Shown: piece by piece, positions 49,550 to 59,042 of the stretch | Layout of the letters: every line of letters begins with the position of its first letter | How positions within the stretch are numbered: the stretch's first letter is position 1 | IMG/VR virus record: IMGVR_UViG_3300043077_000092 | Strand: one strand, 5' to 3' | DNA from: a virus | Lineage: Duplodnaviria; Caudoviricetes | DNA length: 64,000 bases | The notes under the pieces: generated by a model | What the model was told of the DNA's origin: nothing | Database searches by the model: none | What the model saw: the letters and a program-made list of their open reading frames with translations, nothing else | Made by a program: the position numbers and the translations under genes

Positions 49550-52500
49550 TTAAAGAACTAATCGCTCTCCATAGTAAATCACATCCTTTGCAACGTAAGC
49601 GTTTACCGTTGAATCGAGTTCAATATTGGAATTATATCCCTCTTCCAGTCTGGAAAGATTCATCTCGAAGATGGAACGATTCAATTGATCCTTAAAGTCA
49701 AGTCCAGCAAATACAATATCACCCTTGGAGTATTCCTTAGATGCCTCGTACTTGTCATCTGAACTTCTTATGATGTCAAATGTTGTTTCAAGGATAGAAA
49801 GTTTGTTCTTGACCGCTTCTATCTTTTCAGGACTAAAGGATTGATACATTGCAGACTCCTTTGTCGGAGTTGGCTTTGAACCACCATGGACGTCCATATA
49901 CGGTCTATCCTGTTTTTGTTTCTCATTCCAATCAATTCCTGTAAGCATTTCAAATACTGAACGCTTAAGTTCAATCAGAACTTTATATCCCATCATTACG
50001 GTAAGTATAGATGGAGTACCTCTTTGTAGTATTGCAGATGGCGCTAATGGGACATCAATTTCCTCGTATGGTCTAAACATTGTATACGGTTCCAATCCTC
50101 TTGGAATCATATAACCGTTTGTCGCTTTATTAGCAGACATATGAGCAAATTTATCACCATCTGATACTTCATCATGATATGTGACGAAAATCTCAATTAA
50201 GACTCCGTCATGAACATCAACACCTGCAATTTTACCATATTGGTCTGGTTTTATCGTCCCTACAGACTCGTTGAAGAATATTCCACTTCGATAAACGGAG
50301 TTTTTATTCTTATCGTACTTATCCATATAGGAACGACGTTTCCTTTCGTGTGCTTGTACATTATTTACAACCTTTCTTAACGACGGTGTCATCTCTTCAG
50401 GTTCTACCGCAGGGTATACTCTGATACTTGCAACAATTCCATCGTGTTTAGTTGTATATTTGCTCTTTCCAAGGTTTACGATATCTTCCTGTAAGTCCTG
50501 TCTGATAGAATGCATTAATTCACTCATCTCTTCATCCGTATAAGAAGTATCAAACCTAATTAAGTCATCTCCATTATGAACTCGGTCTCCAACTTTGACA
50601 ATAAAGTCAACATCAGAATTTTTACCAAGTACAACGGAAACTTCTTTCATTGTAATATCGGTTGACATTGCACGGCTTAGCCTATAGGTAGACCACATTG
50701 AGTCTTCATAGGTTGCCATGTTAGACAGACAAGCCGCCTTTACCTTTGTACCATACGTAAGTTTGTTACCAAGTAATCCAGTATCTTTGTAGTAATGCTT
50801 ATCAAAAGCAAGGATGGCATCTTTCTTAAACTTATCTCCTTTCTTGAAAGAAGAATCAAGCTTGTTATCAAGATAGAATCCACCGCCACCATTTTGAACA
50901 ATCTTCTTATCCAAATCAATAGCCTGAGTAGTTCCATCTTTGTATTTGATTACCATGATATTTACGTCATCATCTCTGTCAATAACTTCCCCATCCTGTT
51001 TTGCTACATAGGAGAAATCATTTGAAGTACGATACTGAATTGTAGAGTCAAACCCATTTGTGATAAGACATGGGCATTGATCCTTTACAGGAATTGCATG
51101 GCATGATTGCTTACTTGTCATTGCTGTACGGTTAGGGTCATCATGGGCAACTCCCATTGGATATGTCATTTCCTCGGTTGTCATAAGTTTAGTAGCATCT
51201 AAATTCTGAGCGTTTTCACGTCCAACAACATCGAGCATACCATATGCGTTTACAACATTCGGTTCTACAACCAAATGTCTCTCTTTACCACAGTTTCCAG
51301 ATATATCAGTTGAAACTCCGATAAGTCCAACCATATTGTCATGGTAATTACGTTTTTCTTCGCTGTAACTGCGGTCTTTATTCATTCCCACGTAACCTTT
51401 CATCGAAGTTACACCAAATTGCTTTACTTCAACGATTGGAGATAAGGTGCTATAAGAATCAACTGTCGGAAGACTATTCAAAGCCTTAATTACGCAATCG
51501 GGATCGACAGTAAGCTTTGCAGGATTAGCATTGTTAGCTGTCTTTCTATATCTTGCATAAGACTTTGTCATTTCCTTATAGAGAATTGCAGGAATAATCT
51601 CAACATTTCTCAATCTGTAAAGTTTCGGATCAGTATCAATAGAGAAAGTACTATCCGCAAGCATATTACTTGCAAATATCATAAGCGATACCAAATCCTC
51701 TGGATAACCAAGTAACTTCAAGATATCAAGTGTCTTAAAGTCAATCATGAAATCATAGAAGTTGATAAAACCACCTGCATAATATCCACTTCCTAAAAGC
51801 TGTTCAAAGATCGTGATATACGTATCTCTTGAGTCCATCTCTTCAAAGGTAAATTCCTTCATAATAAGGTCAGTGAACCCATTAAAGAGAAGACAAGCTT
51901 CCAGATTGTTCATAGGGTACTTTAAGTATCCATCAGCAAACTGAATATACATGTAGTTGTCTGACTTATTCTCCTTATCAACAAATTCAACCTGAGTTGA
52001 ACCGTTTAAAGTATTGAACTTCTGAACTACAGTTGTTAATCCTTCAAAGAAGCAAACTGCAAATACAAGTGGAAATTTCTTCTCCATCATCTTTACGTCA
52101 TTATGAACGTACTTACGTCCAGAAGATAATTTCTTGAACTCGTCATAATAATCAGGCATAGATTCATTAACGATAAGAGAAACCATATCCTGATGCTCTG
52201 CATTTTTTGTATTATAGACAATAGGAGTTTTGTCTTTGGTATGATAACCAATGATAGACTCTTCAAGTGTAGAGTCTTTATACTTATCTCCAAGTTCATC
52301 TTTGAGCATATCTACTGAGAATACAAAAACGCAATCATTAATAACGATCTTATTGTACTTAGAAGCCAACTCATCATATTCCAAGCAGGTTAAGTAAGGT
52401 TGATTGATAACTGAGTTATCCCCCTTATATACACGAATGGTTGTTCCTGCCGGTCTTTTATCCTGATCAATTAAGACCTTCTTGAATCTTTCCATATTCG

Positions 52501-54280
52501 GATTAAATCTTGTTCCCTGACGGTTCATCCAAATCTTATTGTAATTGGTTACAATCTGTAATTCATCAGGTCCAGTCTTAATTACTGGTAAACCGACAAG
52601 CTGTTTTTCGATTACACGTTTCTTACCATTTATAATAAGAAACTTATCATCAACCAACTTCGGAATGTTGACTTTCATAGTGTGACGTTTACGGTTCTCA
52701 TCTTCAAACTCGATTGTATAGGTATCCTGATAAACCATCTCAGTTGAGGTGTCTTCAATCGTAACATTGGTGACATTTACGTTGATACCTTTGTCGTTGA
52801 ATGAAGTAATGGCTCTTGCCATATCTCTATCGAACTGCTCGTTGATATAAGCGGATTCAAAGTTGTAGAACCTTACGTTCTTAAGTTCCTCATTATCCGT
52901 TGTATTGGTTTCAATTTTTACCTCAGGAATCTGAGGAGGCTCTGGTATATCTACCACTAATTCACCGATAGGCTTATCGTGAATCTTAATCTTCATCTGC
53001 TGTTCTCTAAGCATCTCATCACGCTTTAGTGATGCAGCCGATTTTGTACCACGACGTTTATCTGCTACTGACTTTATATATTTCTCTTTCAGTTCTTCGT
53101 TGGTTTCGATTTCTTCTATCGTATCATCAATGGCAGTCTCTTCATCGATAGTATCATCATCTGAAGAAGATGTATCGTCATCGTTAAACTCGATATTTAG
53201 CTTTTCAGCCTCTTCTTTCTCACGGCGTTTCTCTTCTTTCTTTGCCTCTTCTTTATCAGCTTCAGTATCCTTTGTTAAAGTAACTTTCTTCTCAATCTTT
53301 CCACCAACAAGGTCAGTTGCAATGGTTGGAATACCCTTTTCTAATTCAGAAGAATTTGGAACTGCTACCTGAGAGCCAGTAAAGTTCTTTGTAATCTTTG
53401 CTGTAATTGTCTCATCATAGTCATTCTTGATGATTGTATCATACTTTTCTTCAGCTCCTATAAAGCTTGGCTTAATACGCTTTGTGAAGTTGATAAGCTT
53501 TGTATAATTTTCCCTCTTGAAATCTGTAGCCGTATTAACGAGAATATATCCCTTAGATGTATAAAAGAGAATTTCAAACTCAGGAACTGACATCATGATC
53601 TTGTAAATCACATTATCAGACTTCCTCATAAGAAGCATCATATAATCATAGAAAGAATAATCCGTAAGTTCACACTTTGGATTATACTCATCCAGATCAA
53701 TAAAGATTGGTGACTTCTCATAATCTTTGAAGTTTAACTGAGTATAAAAAATACCGATTGTTTCAAAATACATACGAAGGCGTTCTATTAACGGCATCTT
53801 CATAAGTTTCTTCTGGTACTTTAATAATCTCGTAATCGGTTCCATATCATAGACAAAATTCTTATTTGCAAGAACGGTTAAACTGATTGGAGTTATCGTA
53901 TTCTGAGAACTCTCTTGCATAGAACCATAATCAGTCAGTCGTTCCCGTTTAAGCTCAGACTTTGTCTTTCCCGGGTTCTTAACCCTTCGTGACTTGATAC
54001 AAGTACGAAGTCTAATATGATCATAGTAATAACCCTTGTAACCAGTGCCAAGATTCATGAGTCTTGGGTGTTTATTGTTAAGTACAATAGCGATATCTGA
54101 TATCGATGTATTTAAAAACGGTATAAACATTCCCTTATTCGAATCACCTTTTCTTGGCAATTGAAGTTTCTCTTTGGTGACGGTAAAATCCTGTACTCCA
54201 TCGAGACGTTTCATTTCTAAAACTGTCTCTCGCACTTCATTTGCATTTGCAGGAAGACCGTCAAAAAACCCAAATTTCAT
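49550..54280 (-). CDS. rpoB: Phage multisubunit RNA polymerase beta subunit, unsplit (probably virion RNAP)
   Basis: IPKL..FLIINGKKR; RNYHDNMVGLIG.STDISGNCG; HDDPNRTAMTSKQ (cf. HDDANRALMGANMQ); YEDS; DGDKFAHMSANK (cf. GDKMAGRHGNK); late promoter at 54305-54316. Confidence 0.92.
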   Translation of the reverse strand: MKFGFFDGLPANANEVRETVLEMKRLDGVQDFTVTKEKLQLPRKGDSNKGMFIPFLNTSISDIAIVLNNKHPRLMNLGTGYKGYYYDHIRLRTCIKSRRVKNPGKTKSELKRERLTDYGSMQESSQNTITPISLTVLANKNFVYDMEPITRLLKYQKKLMKMPLIERLRMYFETIGIFYTQLNFKDYEKSPIFIDLDEYNPKCELTDYSFYDYMMLLMRKSDNVIYKIMMSVPEFEILFYTSKGYILVNTATDFKRENYTKLINFTKRIKPSFIGAEEKYDTIIKNDYDETITAKITKNFTGSQVAVPNSSELEKGIPTIATDLVGGKIEKKVTLTKDTEADKEEAKKEEKRREKEEAEKLNIEFNDDDTSSSDDDTIDEETAIDDTIEEIETNEELKEKYIKSVADKRRGTKSAASLKRDEMLREQQMKIKIHDKPIGELVVDIPEPPQIPEVKIETNTTDNEELKNVRFYNFESAYINEQFDRDMARAITSFNDKGINVNVTNVTIEDTSTEMVYQDTYTIEFEDENRKRHTMKVNIPKLVDDKFLIINGKKRVIEKQLVGLPVIKTGPDELQIVTNYNKIWMNRQGTRFNPNMERFKKVLIDQDKRPAGTTIRVYKGDNSVINQPYLTCLEYDELASKYNKIVINDCVFVFSVDMLKDELGDKYKDSTLEESIIGYHTKDKTPIVYNTKNAEHQDMVSLIVNESMPDYYDEFKKLSSGRKYVHNDVKMMEKKFPLVFAVCFFEGLTTVVQKFNTLNGSTQVEFVDKENKSDNYMYIQFADGYLKYPMNNLEACLLFNGFTDLIMKEFTFEEMDSRDTYITIFEQLLGSGYYAGGFINFYDFMIDFKTLDILKLLGYPEDLVSLMIFASNMLADSTFSIDTDPKLYRLRNVEIIPAILYKEMTKSYARYRKTANNANPAKLTVDPDCVIKALNSLPTVDSYSTLSPIVEVKQFGVTSMKGYVGMNKDRSYSEEKRNYHDNMVGLIGVSTDISGNCGKERHLVVEPNVVNAYGMLDVVGRENAQNLDATKLMTTEEMTYPMGVAHDDPNRTAMTSKQSCHAIPVKDQCPCLITNGFDSTIQYRTSNDFSYVAKQDGEVIDRDDDVNIMVIKYKDGTTQAIDLDKKIVQNGGGGFYLDNKLDSSFKKGDKFKKDAILAFDKHYYKDTGLLGNKLTYGTKVKAACLSNMATYEDSMWSTYRLSRAMSTDITMKEVSVVLGKNSDVDFIVKVGDRVHNGDDLIRFDTSYTDEEMSELMHSIRQDLQEDIVNLGKSKYTTKHDGIVASIRVYPAVEPEEMTPSLRKVVNNVQAHERKRRSYMDKYDKNKNSVYRSGIFFNESVGTIKPDQYGKIAGVDVHDGVLIEIFVTYHDEVSDGDKFAHMSANKATNGYMIPRGLEPYTMFRPYEEIDVPLAPSAILQRGTPSILTVMMGYKVLIELKRSVFEMLTGIDWNEKQKQDRPYMDVHGGSKPTPTKESAMYQSFSPEKIEAVKNKLSILETTFDIIRSSDDKYEASKEYSKGDIVFAGLDFKDQLNRSIFEMNLSRLEEGYNSNIELDSTVNAYVAKDVIYYGERLVL

Positions 54281-54304
54281 GCTGTAATTACCTCCCTTCT
54301 TAAT

Positions 54305-54316
54305 TAAAGAATTGTT
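54305..54316 (-). promoter_or_regulatory. Late-type phage promoter nACA-N6-TA (representative of 11 copies)
   Basis: AACA-ATTCTT-TA upstream of RNAP beta; matches the AR9 late promoter pattern AACA-N6-TA/G. Confidence 0.7.
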
Positions 54317-54334
54317 AAATACGCGTTATTATAC

Positions 54335-54537
54335 AAAAAAGACAACGAGCCGACGAACCTCACACCTCGGTGAAATCCGTCGACTCGTATCTCATTTTGG
54401 GAGGCTAGTACGATTCTGATCGGCATCATCATAACTCAGCATTCTCTGTCTAAGTTACCCCATGCGGGCGCCTATCTTCGCCACACGCGCTGGCGCCCGC
54501 CGCCATTCATCGCCGATAACGTACACTCATCGCCTCT
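54335..54537 (-). ncRNA. Structured GC-rich small RNA (~160 nt plus terminator), possibly 6S-like
   Basis: Late promoter AACA-TATTTT-TA gives +1 at 54537. Nested stems GAGGC/GCCUC, GUACG/CGUAC, AUCGGC/GCCGAU, GCGGGCGCC/GGCGCCCGC and UAACUUAG/CUGAGUUA. Terminator ACGAGUCGACG..CGUCGGCUCGU + U-tract. No ORF. Confidence 0.7.
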
Positions 54538-54573
54538 AAAAATATGTTGTATACTAAAAGATTTATTATACGT

Positions 54574-55215
54574 TTATTTTAAAAATGATTTTGACTCTCT
54601 GATACTATAAAATGGATTGCATCTTAAAATCTCAACTGCAATAAACTGTTCACATAGAGCAGGTTCATCCCATATATAGAAGATATCAGTGATACTTTTA
54701 TATGATGAACCTACTCCAAACTTTTTACTTACAATCGAATGTATCTCTCTTAATCTCTTTATTAATTCAAATAGAACTAATGAATCAGATGTCTCTTTAA
54801 TGTAGCTATATAGATATTTGATTGAGTAATCTGAGCATAGTCTATATAAATCGTGAGATAACTTGCGAATCTCTACTGGACTAAATGCCACCTCTTGAAA
54901 GAATTCATATTCAACTTCAGGTACTACAATCATTGATTCACTATTAGACTTTCCATATACGGAGACTAATTCACAAAGTGCAACTTCTACAAAGTTATCT
55001 GTCATGTTAATACCAGAATTCTCTATCACATGTTCCATTGCAGCCATACATTTACTACCTGTATCATACTCAACTACAGGCATTATATTCTTCACTTTAA
55101 ACTTTTCCATTAATTCGACATACTTACGAAACCGAAATGGGTTATCTGTAAACCCAGAAAATCTCTCTTGTAGGTTTACTGAGTCTGGTACGAAACCATA
55201 ATACATATAATTCAC
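54574..55215 (-). CDS. Hypothetical protein (divergent tandem family)
   Basis: 213 aa; N-terminal Y-hydrophobic..GFTDN..RKY pattern shared with neighbours. Confidence 0.75.
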   Translation of the reverse strand: MNYMYYGFVPDSVNLQERFSGFTDNPFRFRKYVELMEKFKVKNIMPVVEYDTGSKCMAAMEHVIENSGINMTDNFVEVALCELVSVYGKSNSESMIVVPEVEYEFFQEVAFSPVEIRKLSHDLYRLCSDYSIKYLYSYIKETSDSLVLFELIKRLREIHSIVSKKFGVGSSYKSITDIFYIWDEPALCEQFIAVEILRCNPFYSIRESKSFLK

Positions 55216-55220
55216 CTCCT

Positions 55221-55874
55221 TTACTTAAGAAACTCATAAGAAGTTATCCAGACTTTCATCATCTCACATGGATCAATCGTAACCCTTGACCTTATATCAT
55301 ATGGATCTTGAAGTAATCTAGGTAGTACATCTAATATCATTTCTCTAAATTCAATTAATGATTTATTCTCTTGCATTTGGAAAATGTAATTATTGAGTTC
55401 TGTGAATAGATATGTCAAACGAAGCATGATGGACTGTTCGCATCCAGTGAAATGGATTGAATCAAATAGTTCATTCATAGCTTCTGAGCAAATAAGAAAA
55501 TCTCCATTAACCAACGGTTGTTCTACAAGAACTGGCATTGTTGCAGCCACTGTCCATGGCAAATTTGTATTGCAATCATACGGATTTCCGTTATTATATA
55601 GAGATAAAGCTATAGTTGATAGTTGACCACTATCAACGACATCACCCACTGCATCAATATCAATGTCAATATTGGTATATTTGAAAGTTTTGAGTTTCAC
55701 CAATCCTTTTGTAAGATTAGATAAGAAATCATAGTATCGTTTCATATAAAACCAATTAGTGGTACATCCTCTAAGAATATCTCTATGAAGATAAAATTGG
55801 TCTGCAAGATTATAATCTTCTGGATCATAGATTTCTTTATCTAATCGGTCTATATCTATAATGTAGATATCCAA
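55221..55874 (-). CDS. Hypothetical protein (divergent tandem family)
   Basis: 217 aa; IYII..RGCTTNW.YMKRY. Confidence 0.75.
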   Translation of the reverse strand: MDIYIIDIDRLDKEIYDPEDYNLADQFYLHRDILRGCTTNWFYMKRYYDFLSNLTKGLVKLKTFKYTNIDIDIDAVGDVVDSGQLSTIALSLYNNGNPYDCNTNLPWTVAATMPVLVEQPLVNGDFLICSEAMNELFDSIHFTGCEQSIMLRLTYLFTELNNYIFQMQENKSLIEFREMILDVLPRLLQDPYDIRSRVTIDPCEMMKVWITSYEFLK

Positions 55875-55895
55875 TTATGTCACCACCTTTACGTG

Positions 55896-56555
55896 TTAAT
55901 TTAAAAGAGTTTGATCATATACGAAATAGATAAGTTCATATAGCATAAAGTAAGTAGGGTCAAATCCCATTTCCTCTGGAGAAGCTCCCCAATATTGATT
56001 TTCTTTATAATTAAAAGCTATTGCACTATCAGCAACGCTTTGCAATATATCTAGTATCTTATCAAACATTTCAACCAATTCATTATCTTTAATATAACTG
56101 ATAATTTTACGTATACCTTCGAATCCTTCTTCGGTCTGGTTAAAGATTCCTACATCAGAATCTTCATAATAACTATCCATAACCAAATGATTTAATATAA
56201 CTTCCATTTGATCTAATACAGGACTATGAGATTTCATAATACAGATTTCATGTTCAAGTTCCAAATCTGGATGAATTTCTTCTATACCATAATGATCAAC
56301 TATCCAATCAATCATCTCTCCTGAACTATAATTTATATAATCTGGAAATTCATATTTTACAATACGAAGTTTAAGCTTACTAAATGAATTATCAAACCAT
56401 CTATCAATGAAGTTCATATAGAGCTTTACTATATATTCCGACCTATGCCAACCTTGGAATAGATAGAAGTTATTTAGTATAGTATATGCTATTGAAGTTC
56501 TAGGTGGTAACGATTCATTATAAGAGCAAGGGTGTACTGCGTATATACATTTCAT
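55896..56555 (-). CDS. Hypothetical protein (divergent tandem family)
   Basis: 219 aa; IYAV..QGWHRSEYIVKLY; early-type ATATATTA at 56588-56595. Confidence 0.75.
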   Translation of the reverse strand: MKCIYAVHPCSYNESLPPRTSIAYTILNNFYLFQGWHRSEYIVKLYMNFIDRWFDNSFSKLKLRIVKYEFPDYINYSSGEMIDWIVDHYGIEEIHPDLELEHEICIMKSHSPVLDQMEVILNHLVMDSYYEDSDVGIFNQTEEGFEGIRKIISYIKDNELVEMFDKILDILQSVADSAIAFNYKENQYWGASPEEMGFDPTYFMLYELIYFVYDQTLLN

Positions 56556-56634
56556 CTTAATTCACTCCTTTCTTTTTCACATGCTATTAATATATAAATA
56601 AAGCAACAAACGGGATTGAAGGTAGGTGATTTTT

Positions 56635-56829
56635 ATGGAAAACAACCCCGAAACAGAAGCAGTTAAAGACATTAGTAATTCAGTTCGCATTATGTTAAAT
56701 GGCGACCGTATTGGATATTGCCCTTGGTGTAAAGCTGCTGTATCAATGAGAAGCTTCCCAGTATCGAGATGTATGGTTTGCTGGCATTTAATTAATTGGG
56801 ATATAAATGGACTTAGAAATGAACAATGA
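56635..56829 (+). CDS. Small zinc-ribbon protein
   Basis: CPWC..CMVC..INW; RBS AGGTGA. Confidence 0.65.
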   Translation: MENNPETEAVKDISNSVRIMLNGDRIGYCPWCKAAVSMRSFPVSRCMVCWHLINWDINGLRNEQ

Positions 56830-56830
56830 C

Positions 56831-56875
56831 GAAAGTGGGATACCGAACTCCATCCGTGATCGGTATCCCACTTTC
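56831..56875. repeat. 16-bp perfect inverted repeat
   Basis: GAAAGTGGGATACCGA / TCGGTATCCCACTTTC. Confidence 0.75.
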
Positions 56876-56979
56876 CCATGCGTCGTAGTTACATGAAAGC
56901 TTGAGGATAAAATATTTCTTTTATGTAATGAGATTCCCGATTGACTCTCATTAAGATTAATGTATATATTTTGACAAGA

Positions 56980-57890
56980 AATAATGACAGGCATTACATA
57001 ATCTTAATGTAGAAAATGGGTGTATCACTTTCTTGATATTACAATAGCATCCGACACCAAAAATCCAGATATGCATATCTGGAGTCGGCACAAGATATGC
57101 GAAGTAATTCAGGATATTACGTGTATGAGCCTGTGAATATGCAGGACGTGGAGTCGCCAGTTAGAAATAATTGGTAACGAATGCTGTAAGAACTGCCACT
57201 TATTTAAAATGCTTCCCCGACTATTGGTATAGACGTTTTGTAGAGTTCGGAATACTAGGTCATGTTCAGAAGAAACCACCCTAGGGAAGCGGGTGTTTTG
57301 TAGAGGTAGCAACGCATACTTCCGAGGCAGAGCCACTATAGATATATGAAAAGAGACTGAAAAAGACTTCTATAGGGGAGGCGAGAGCTGGAATCACCGA
57401 GGAGGGATGTAGCCCTATCCTATGAAATAACTGGGTGTCGGTCCTTTAGGGGCAGGTGCGTTCAAACGTAGAGAATAGGAATGCGGAGTGGCGGTCACTA
57501 GCCTGACCTGCAATTTCATAACTATGACTATGGAATTGGGACCCGGTCAACTCAATCGTGGGCTTTACAAGGATAAAGCAGACGGTCGCCTAGGTAGCGA
57601 CTAATTAAACTACATCTCATACACCTAGATTCGGTTGGTTATAATAGAATCTCATTGTATCTAAAGAATAAAAGAAACCATCTTTATGGAAACTACAAAT
57701 CGGGGGCACCTGATTATCATAATATAAGTCAGTTGCAAATGACTTATCATTGATTTGCGATACGATGGAAAATAGGAGTTGAGTTAGGAGCATCATAGTC
57801 CATCCCTAATTCGATTATCTTATTATACCGGAAAAGAAATGATATCATTGGTGATATGCGGTTCTTTCTTGTGGGACCGCATGTTATTTA
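56980..57890 (+). ncRNA. Candidate large structured non-coding RNA (~900 nt)
   Basis: No credible ORF, GC content above the flanks, >12 hairpins with G-U pairs on the + strand, a GAAA tetraloop, long-range and pseudoknot complementarities; boundaries approximate. Confidence 0.6.
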
Positions 57891-57999: not shown

Positions 58000-58560
58000 G
58001 AAATACGGGTATTCAGGCTAAAGATGAGACAAAGCTCAAAAATAGCTAGAATACCCGTATTTCTCGTTGTTCTACCAATTTATTTTTGTAAAGGAATGGT
58101 TTTTCAATTTTCTTTCAAAAAAGAAAAGAAAGTACCAAAGAAAAGAAAAAATTACAACAAAAAATAATGCCCAAGGGTCCCCAAACCCCTTGGGCATTAT
58201 TTTTATGTTGTTAAAATTTTATTTATTAGATGAAAAATTTTAGAAAAATTGAAAATTTTTAAAAGAAAAATAATTTTTGTATTAATTATATTAAAAATAA
58301 TATTTTTAATGAAATATATTTAATAGAATTCATATTAGAAAAATTCATTTTTATTTAAAGAAAAATTATTTCATTAAATAGAATTTTTATAAAGAAATTT
58401 TATTTAGACAAATTTTAGTTAAATCTCATGATTTTAAGAAGTGGAAATAAAATCTCCTGTTCGGAGATTTTATTTATTGATTTTTCGCTTACGCTCATTA
58501 TGTTACGTAGACCGATTTTATTAAAAGAAAATTTTTATCTCATAGAAAAATTATATATTA
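58000..58560. other. Extremely AT-rich intergenic region with three inverted repeats; candidate replication origin
   Basis: Inverted repeats at 58000-58063 (15 bp), 58154-58211 (17-bp core) and 58445-58475 (13 bp) around an almost pure A/T tract at 58210-58440. Confidence 0.45.
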
Positions 58561-58592
58561 AAAAGAAAATACAGGAAAGGAGATGATTTTAA

Positions 58593-59042
58593 ATGAGAAA
58601 TTTTGATTACGAGATTTTTGTTGCATATAGAAATTCCGAAATATTTGCTTATTCATATAATCTAAATGAATTTTTCGGATTTCTTAGAAGTTTCTATAAA
58701 TATCATGGAAATTTAGAACTCGAAATTTGCAAATTGAAAAACCCAAAAGAAATTATCGAGTTTGAAGGAAAATTTTATGGCGAATTTGAAATCGTCGAAT
58801 TTTCCCAGAATATTTATTTACGAAATTTTGAATATAAGGTTTGGGATTCTTATTTTAGAGAATTATATGCTAAAGTAAGAGAGGTTTATAAAAACCCTAA
58901 TAAGAAGTATTTGGATTATTATGAAGGATTTTTGAATTATCTTGGAGAAGAAAAGATAGAAAGTATTATTAGAAAAACTGGTTCCGTAGAAGAAGAATAT
59001 AAGCTGAAACGAGACTATCTGCGGAAAATTGAGGACAATTAA
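58593..59042 (+). CDS. Hypothetical protein
   Basis: 149 aa, RBS GAAAGGAG, early-type ATATATTA at 58553-58560. Confidence 0.75.
   Translation: MRNFDYEIFVAYRNSEIFAYSYNLNEFFGFLRSFYKYHGNLELEICKLKNPKEIIEFEGKFYGEFEIVEFSQNIYLRNFEYKVWDSYFRELYAKVREVYKNPNKKYLDYYEGFLNYLGEEKIESIIRKTGSVEEEYKLKRDYLRKIEDN

Follow-up and report, generated by a model that had tools for sequence, protein, structure and literature searches.

What does a jumbo phage make from about 900 nt that hold no conserved reading frame? The question arises at positions 56980-57890 of the window, the 64,000-nt stretch of viral DNA analysed here, where an initial annotation had described an ORF-free, relatively GC-rich region and proposed a pseudoknotted RNA, either GOLLD or ROOL or a new class of large non-coding RNA. 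The window comes from a 220-kb virus record of an AR9/PBS1-type jumbo phage, and the 1576-aa gene at 49550-54280 encodes the jumbo-phage RNA polymerase beta subunit, whose closest cultured relatives are found in Staphylococcus SA1-like and Bacillus PBS1-like phages (about 31-33% identity). Strong AAAGGAGG ribosome-binding sites suggest that the host belongs to the phylum Bacillota, and the record name of at least one relative gives a human gut sample as its origin; the phages that carry the RNA are a clade of uncultured giant gut phages. The region is indeed free of conserved ORFs, with only short ones (44-75 aa) on the minus strand; gaps between its homologs are rarely multiples of three (248 of 2186) and no reading frame is shared. 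Its GC content is raised as described, but only modestly (0.41 vs. 0.375 genome-wide). No tRNA or tmRNA was found in the window by ARAGORN.

Between this region and the polymerase gene lie three adjacent minus-strand genes of 213-219 aa (54574-56555), a block that is kept in all carriers of the RNA. The three matched no known family and have no detectable similarity to one another, and no Pfam family was matched by the genes neighbouring the RNA. Just upstream of the RNA promoter, a 67-aa ORF on the + strand (56626-56829) has two CxxC motifs, is zinc-ribbon-like and is conserved in four relatives; a perfect 16-bp inverted repeat (56831-56875) follows it. Another inverted repeat (56913-36/57647-70) was rejected, its upstream arm not being conserved. 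The gene-free gap before the polymerase gene (54300-54575) is GC-richer (0.45) and gave zero nucleotide matches among 19 related loci; since several relatives have fewer than 100 nt there, it is not conserved.

Relatives were collected through the polymerase gene, and the RNA was then located in them by a profile. No other part of the neighbourhood matched nearly as strongly at the nucleotide level as the RNA stretch. All loci that reach the site and have a polymerase at least 64% identical gave a profile match at the same place, except for L048 and L049, where the polymerase is 69% identical and the region is locally rearranged. This yielded 13 distinct sequences including the window, with aligned spans of 850-913 nt and pairwise identities of 46-87%; the 12 homologs are 46-75% identical to the window, and the RNA is present in a single copy per genome where tested. 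The flanking proteins of the carriers are merely 22-45% identical and so less conserved than the RNA. No match to two covariance models was obtained in relatives whose polymerase beta is at most 47% identical, including four near-complete genomes. Searching viral, metagenome and bacterial-genome collections by sequence pattern added no homologs, the extra matches being coding or chance, and BLASTN against cultured phages and plasmids returned chance 40-nt matches or nothing. As far as these searches reach, the RNA family is narrow and belongs to one AR9-like jumbo phage clade.

Three related loci deserve mention in their own right. In L048 (2300-2910 and 8262-8553), the rearranged region keeps an origin-like tract, and the RNA is absent at both syntenic junctions; this phage may have lost the RNA or have it relocated. 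A 47%-identity relative has a 1.3-kb gene-free stretch with many inverted repeats upstream of its polymerase gene (L045:1-1291), which the RNA models did not match. Finally, 5.3 kb without called genes (L037:18026-23379) stand where relatives start a protein of about 4000 aa of the lysozyme/peptidase type, possibly through a frameshift, an intron or an assembly error.

The RNA lies 2.3-5 kb from the virion-type polymerase beta gene and the three genes of about 215 aa in 13 of 13 carriers. This setting would suit an RNA that scaffolds phage proteins in a ribonucleoprotein. It could, for instance, regulate the virion RNA polymerase, whose gene is 2.7 kb away in the window, or work in the packaging motor like the pRNA of phi29, and its many invariant unpaired bases could then be protein contacts. 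However, the synteny may be plain inheritance, and the RNA is missing from L048 despite its 69% identity and from the relatives at 47% or below, which include near-complete genomes; hence, it is not needed by all phages with such a polymerase or motor. We consider this role unlikely.

In a subclade of the relatives, IscB-like (RRXRR) genes occupy one site (L037:3752-5086, L039:3880-5211, L040:2684-4006, L050:3503-4819 and L066:1501-2040), 1.2-2.1 kb downstream of the RNA in these five carriers, as could be expected if the RNA were an OMEGA (IscB) guide or the relic of a mobile intron. This explanation is largely refuted and hardly credible. The RRXRR gene is absent from the window's genome and from two other complete carriers, and the IscB-like genes (39-82% identical) have a conserved upstream element of their own, about 300 nt long and omega RNA-like in each aligned copy. 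In addition, neither the HEARO model nor the group I and II intron models matched, and the RNA is intergenic and interrupts no gene. In all four aligned IscB-like proteins, the HNH histidines appear to be absent and the RuvC-III aspartate is presumably replaced by asparagine, which suggests that they are domesticated, nuclease-dead RNA-guided DNA binders.

We then looked at where the RNA would begin and end. An AT-rich phage promoter element (56961-56972, + strand) contains the octamer TATATATT at 56963-70, which occurs in 10 of the 121 regions upstream of the phage's genes, against 1.9 expected. The octamer resembles the AR9 early promoter consensus, which is read by the virion polymerase, and this would place +1 near 56979 (PMC5312081). 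A spacing of the AR9 late type overlaps the octamer and would give +1 at 56984, and homologs retain the TGTAT core only (11 of 13), so that the promoter may be of the early or the late class. Transcription would thus start at about 56979-56984. At the other end, sequence conservation stops at 57886. The terminal hairpin (57855-83) lacks a U-tail, is not called by terminator prediction and engages its loop in a long-range pairing; it is therefore taken as part of the RNA fold. No internal terminator was found on the + strand within the RNA. The locus would therefore be a stand-alone gene for a large structured RNA of about 900 nt (approximately 56980-57886, + strand), with an AT-rich promoter of its own that a phage-encoded RNA polymerase would read, probably from early in infection.

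Is the fold of this RNA under selection? The folding energy of the stretch was lower than that of shuffles on the + strand (z -3.3) and less so on the minus strand (z -1.3); since z for the + strand ranges from -1.0 to -5.5 across the homologs, folding energy alone is moderate evidence. A model of 129 pairs in 26 helices was scored on a structure-blind alignment of the 13 sequences. In this model, 95.0% of the cells are paired and 67 of the 129 pairs are compensatory; none of 500 shuffles reached its score, and slid controls stood at about 40%. Counted on the tree, same-branch Watson-Crick double changes numbered 83, compared to a null mean of 8.6 and a maximum of 19; selecting the helices from the very alignment used for scoring inflates these pair and double-change counts, but this bias is too small to explain a tenfold excess. 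G-U cells far outnumber A-C cells (222 vs. 16), implying a constraint on the + strand RNA and not on DNA cruciforms. There are 157 invariant columns, 75 of them unpaired in the model, and the invariant unpaired bases cluster in 57136-57209, in two UGAAA pentamers and in the loop 57732-39. In summary, the region is near certain to encode a structured non-coding RNA, with the boundaries and strand drawn in the initial annotation, and the alignment shows selection for a + strand fold in which crossing long-range pairings would lace the 5′, middle and 3′ parts into a compact body.

At the 5′ end, a domain on the + strand (57008-57143) is formed by the helices 57008-11/57140-43 and 57016-21/57129-34 (two of four and four of six pairs compensatory), around an internal loop which we take to be E-loop-like; its interior is variable. 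Within it, 57089-57095 pairs with the last hairpin's loop (57867-73) and so forms the 5′ arm of a long-range pseudoknot (95.6% paired, three pairs compensatory, better than the control in 13 of 13 sequences). This 5′-to-3′ crossing pairing had not been noticed before. The last hairpin itself (57855-57883) is compensatory in six of six pairs. The most conserved core of the RNA follows at 57136-57209, with the helices 57148-51/57196-99 and 57156-60/57171-75, both 100% paired, and 18 of the 75 invariant unpaired columns; it is a candidate for the functional or catalytic centre. In the covariation model, a central pseudoknot comes next (57210-57291): the helix 57210-17/57284-91, with six of eight pairs compensatory, encloses the hairpin 57218-62 and is crossed by 57277-81/57433-37, paired in all 13 sequences. 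The loop of the enclosed hairpin (57237-43) kisses 57693-99, a pairing that beats its control in 11 of 13 sequences, and the hairpin does so in 10 of 13. The initial annotation had correctly paired 57211-17 with 57284-90 as a pseudoknot, but the helix that it crosses is another than the one drawn, as 57277-81 had been assigned to a local hairpin with 57290-94.

Further downstream, the hairpin 57336-57375 (six of seven stem pairs compensatory) carries a large loop with the two UGAAA pentamers. The region 57440-57549 holds the crossing helices 57440-44/57539-43 and 57505-08/57545-48, with three compensatory pairs each, and the model hairpin 57511-38, whose loop (57522-26) is complementary to 57794-98, the loop of a long hairpin of model helices at 57771-57824. 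Because this pairing is invariant, it has no support from covariation; the kissing contact is plausible. The model places three small helices and the helix 57627-32/57647-52 in 57553-57652. In the same part, a weak candidate pseudoknot, 57499-503/57633-37, beats its control in only four of 13 sequences. The self-complementary loop 57590-94 also lies here. It covaries with 57281-84 (through its bases 57590-93), even though 57281 and 57284 have other pairing partners, and a base triple, an alternative pairing or a second self-kissing loop could account for this. The 3′ multiloop domain (57653-57767), in which one helix has seven of eight pairs compensatory, ends in a hairpin with the 8-nt palindromic loop GUUGCAAA (57732-39).

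All the hairpins and complements named in the initial annotation exist in the sequence, and the homologs separate them. Besides the terminal hairpin and 57156-60/57171-75, the hairpins 57511-38, 57562-79, 57585-601, 57724-47 and 57781-812 are borne out by the 13 sequences. The long-range pairing 57121-29/57616-24 is kept in part (better than the control in eight of 13), whereas 57051-58/57434-41 is formed in just two to seven of 13 sequences per pair and has its 5′ arm deleted in six homologs. The hairpins 57130-35/57140-45 (five of 13, its strands pairing with the 5′ end instead) and 57452-57/57506-11 (two of 13) likewise fell away, as did the local hairpin 57277-81/57290-94, whose 5′ strand pairs with 57433-37. 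About one third of the pairings originally drawn thus appear to be chance complements, and several conserved long-range pairings had been missed. At least five crossing pairings hold up, and those with compensatory support are 57089-95/57867-73, 57277-81/57433-37 across 57210-17/57284-91, 57237-43/57693-99, and 57505-08/57545-48 across 57440-44/57539-43.

As the fold is modular and its linkers are variable, the region might instead hold two or three smaller RNAs in tandem, processed from one transcript. However, conserved pairings join the would-be parts (57089-95/57867-73, 57237-43/57693-99, 57277-81/57433-37 and 57522-26/57794-98), and neither an internal + strand terminator nor a match to a ribozyme model was found, which makes separate RNAs very improbable. 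The pairing of the two ends also bears on a possible role in replication. At 58113-58600, downstream of the RNA, a purine-rich repeat and a GC-capped inverted repeat (58160-58204), found in at least five relatives, are followed by the genome's lowest-GC tract, and this region is a candidate replication origin. The RNA could then act as a replication primer or origin activator for this AT-rich tract, like ColE1 RNA II or the T4 origin transcripts. The tract (15-17% GC, about 58300-58600) lies 0.4-0.7 kb downstream of the RNA, a similar AT tract follows the RNA in nine of the ten loci examined, and an inverted-repeat element (58113-58209) is conserved. Yet, a conserved pairing holds the 3′ end to the 5′ domain, which is ill suited to an R-loop primer. 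Moreover, the spacing between RNA and tract varies from 350 to 930 nt and in L050 includes an inserted gene; in L048 the AT tract is present but has no RNA next to it; and a strand-independent skew switch was not seen at the locus. We regard a priming role as improbable.

The two UGAAA pentamers (57347-51 and 57358-62), both present in 13 of 13 sequences on a strongly covarying stem, are of the T-loop type and may be T-loops. [quoted passage not shown] These have been described as a convergent elbow-binding motif, and it has been suggested that viral RNAs be searched for them (PMC4810234, PMC4919913). As in RNase P, T-box stem I and the L1 stalk (PMC4810234), two such motifs, here invariant, sit atop a conserved stem, with the difference that here both are in one hairpin loop. 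A tRNA-binding and possibly catalytic RNA can be envisaged, which would hold the tRNA elbow with the tandem pentamers and act on, measure or sequester host tRNAs with its invariant 5′ core. The 75 of 157 invariant columns that are unpaired would agree with such an activity, as would the finding that the carrier phages encode no tRNAs: none was detected in four carrier genomes, while the control was positive in 14 of 14. On the other hand, the pentamers are about six bases apart within one loop, whereas in known double T-loops a helix separates them. Moreover, T-loops can simply pack against other parts of their own molecule, as they do in raiA. RNase P and T-box models gave no match even at E<=10, and the P4 consensus of RNase P RNA was not seen in the alignment. 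We judge tRNA binding rather unlikely and are equally doubtful that the RNA would be a fourth, independently evolved elbow-gripping RNA with a double T-loop, be it a tRNA-processing ribozyme or a tRNA-sequestering particle in phages free of tRNA genes. The putative tandem T-loop offers a concrete and cheap way into the function of the RNA.

Our best explanation is that the RNA self-assembles. The loop GUUGCAAA (57732-39) is invariant in 13 of 13 sequences over a covarying closing stem, and its self-duplex has an energy of -5.9 kcal/mol. It could therefore form a symmetric kissing bridge between copies of the RNA, which, by analogy with ROOL and GOLLD, would assemble into an RNA-only dimer or cage and, inside infected cells, act as a scaffold or sponge. 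ROOL is an octameric nanocage, in which the loop L18 forms the symmetric kissing bridge B6, and GOLLD is a 14-mer nanocage (PMC12286853). In both, pairings initially modelled as pseudoknots turned out to link separate molecules, and some of the loop-loop pairings described here may likewise form in trans. The loop 57732-39 differs by one base from ROOL L18, whose numbering is from a machine-read sequence and good to about one base (PMC12286853). Size and host type agree with those of ROOL and GOLLD and count for an oligomer; the tRNA-free carriers (four genomes), unlike the usual context of these RNAs, count against it. Covariation cannot demonstrate self-pairing of a loop that never varies, and two invariant stretches, 57174-78 and 57185-89, could pair with it intramolecularly, so that self-kissing is an analogy. 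We see compact folding with oligomerisation through the palindromic loop as an evenly balanced proposition. An earlier idea, that this loop mimics the anticodon loop of tRNA-Cys, was dropped because the covarying closing pair makes it 8 nt long.

How does this RNA compare with known families? At the gathering score, Rfam gave nothing in the window or in 17 related loci; at E<=10, nothing meaningful was found inside the RNA stretch, the weak matches lying almost all in the AT-rich flank, and no ribozyme model matched in the stretch. A published description of the family was not found in a literature search that covered few subscription journals. A 2023 survey of viral candidate RNAs extends to 151 nt only, so small pieces of the RNA could be listed there unrecognised (PMC10690425). 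OLE is likewise large and ornate and belongs to Bacillota, as the host here probably does, but it is chromosomal, and the neighbours of our phage RNA have no Pfam family; its model (RF01071) gave no match at E<=10, in a direct search in which no positive control matched. GOLLD is phage-encoded and of the same size class (>800 nt), as is the RNA of about 900 nt from the 220-kb record, and both have self-complementary GC-centred loops. However, GOLLD has separable domains, conserved 3′ and variable 5′, whereas here both ends are conserved and paired together and the most conserved core is 5′; tRNAs adjoin GOLLD and none adjoin this RNA, and the model of the conserved GOLLD 3′ domain (RF02032) had no match at E<=10 in the genome or region. 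ROOL is also phage-borne, large and multi-pseudoknotted, with intertwined 5′ and 3′ parts, but it measures 570-660 nt against about 900 nt (850-913 in the homologs), its helix order and conserved motifs differ, and it is often near tRNA islands, in contrast to the carriers here. Its model (RF03087) gave no match at the gathering score or at E<=10, in a direct search that matched no control genome either.

In summary, neither the ROOL nor the GOLLD model matches the RNA, which departs from ROOL in length and from GOLLD in domain plan and lacks the tRNA context of both. On the comparisons made here, it is therefore an undescribed class of large ornate phage RNA and a member of neither family; of the two identities first proposed, the new class stands. 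To our knowledge, very few RNA classes of bacteria or phages are this large and complex, and no function is known for ROOL or GOLLD. The large classes that have been assigned a function are ribozymes or central machines, while ROOL and GOLLD are RNA-only cages. With a well-supported fold, this 900-nt class is a ready target for cryo-EM and biochemistry, and its setting in AR9-type jumbo phages with their own polymerases and no tRNA genes makes it a test of whether the tRNA linkage is essential to such RNAs.
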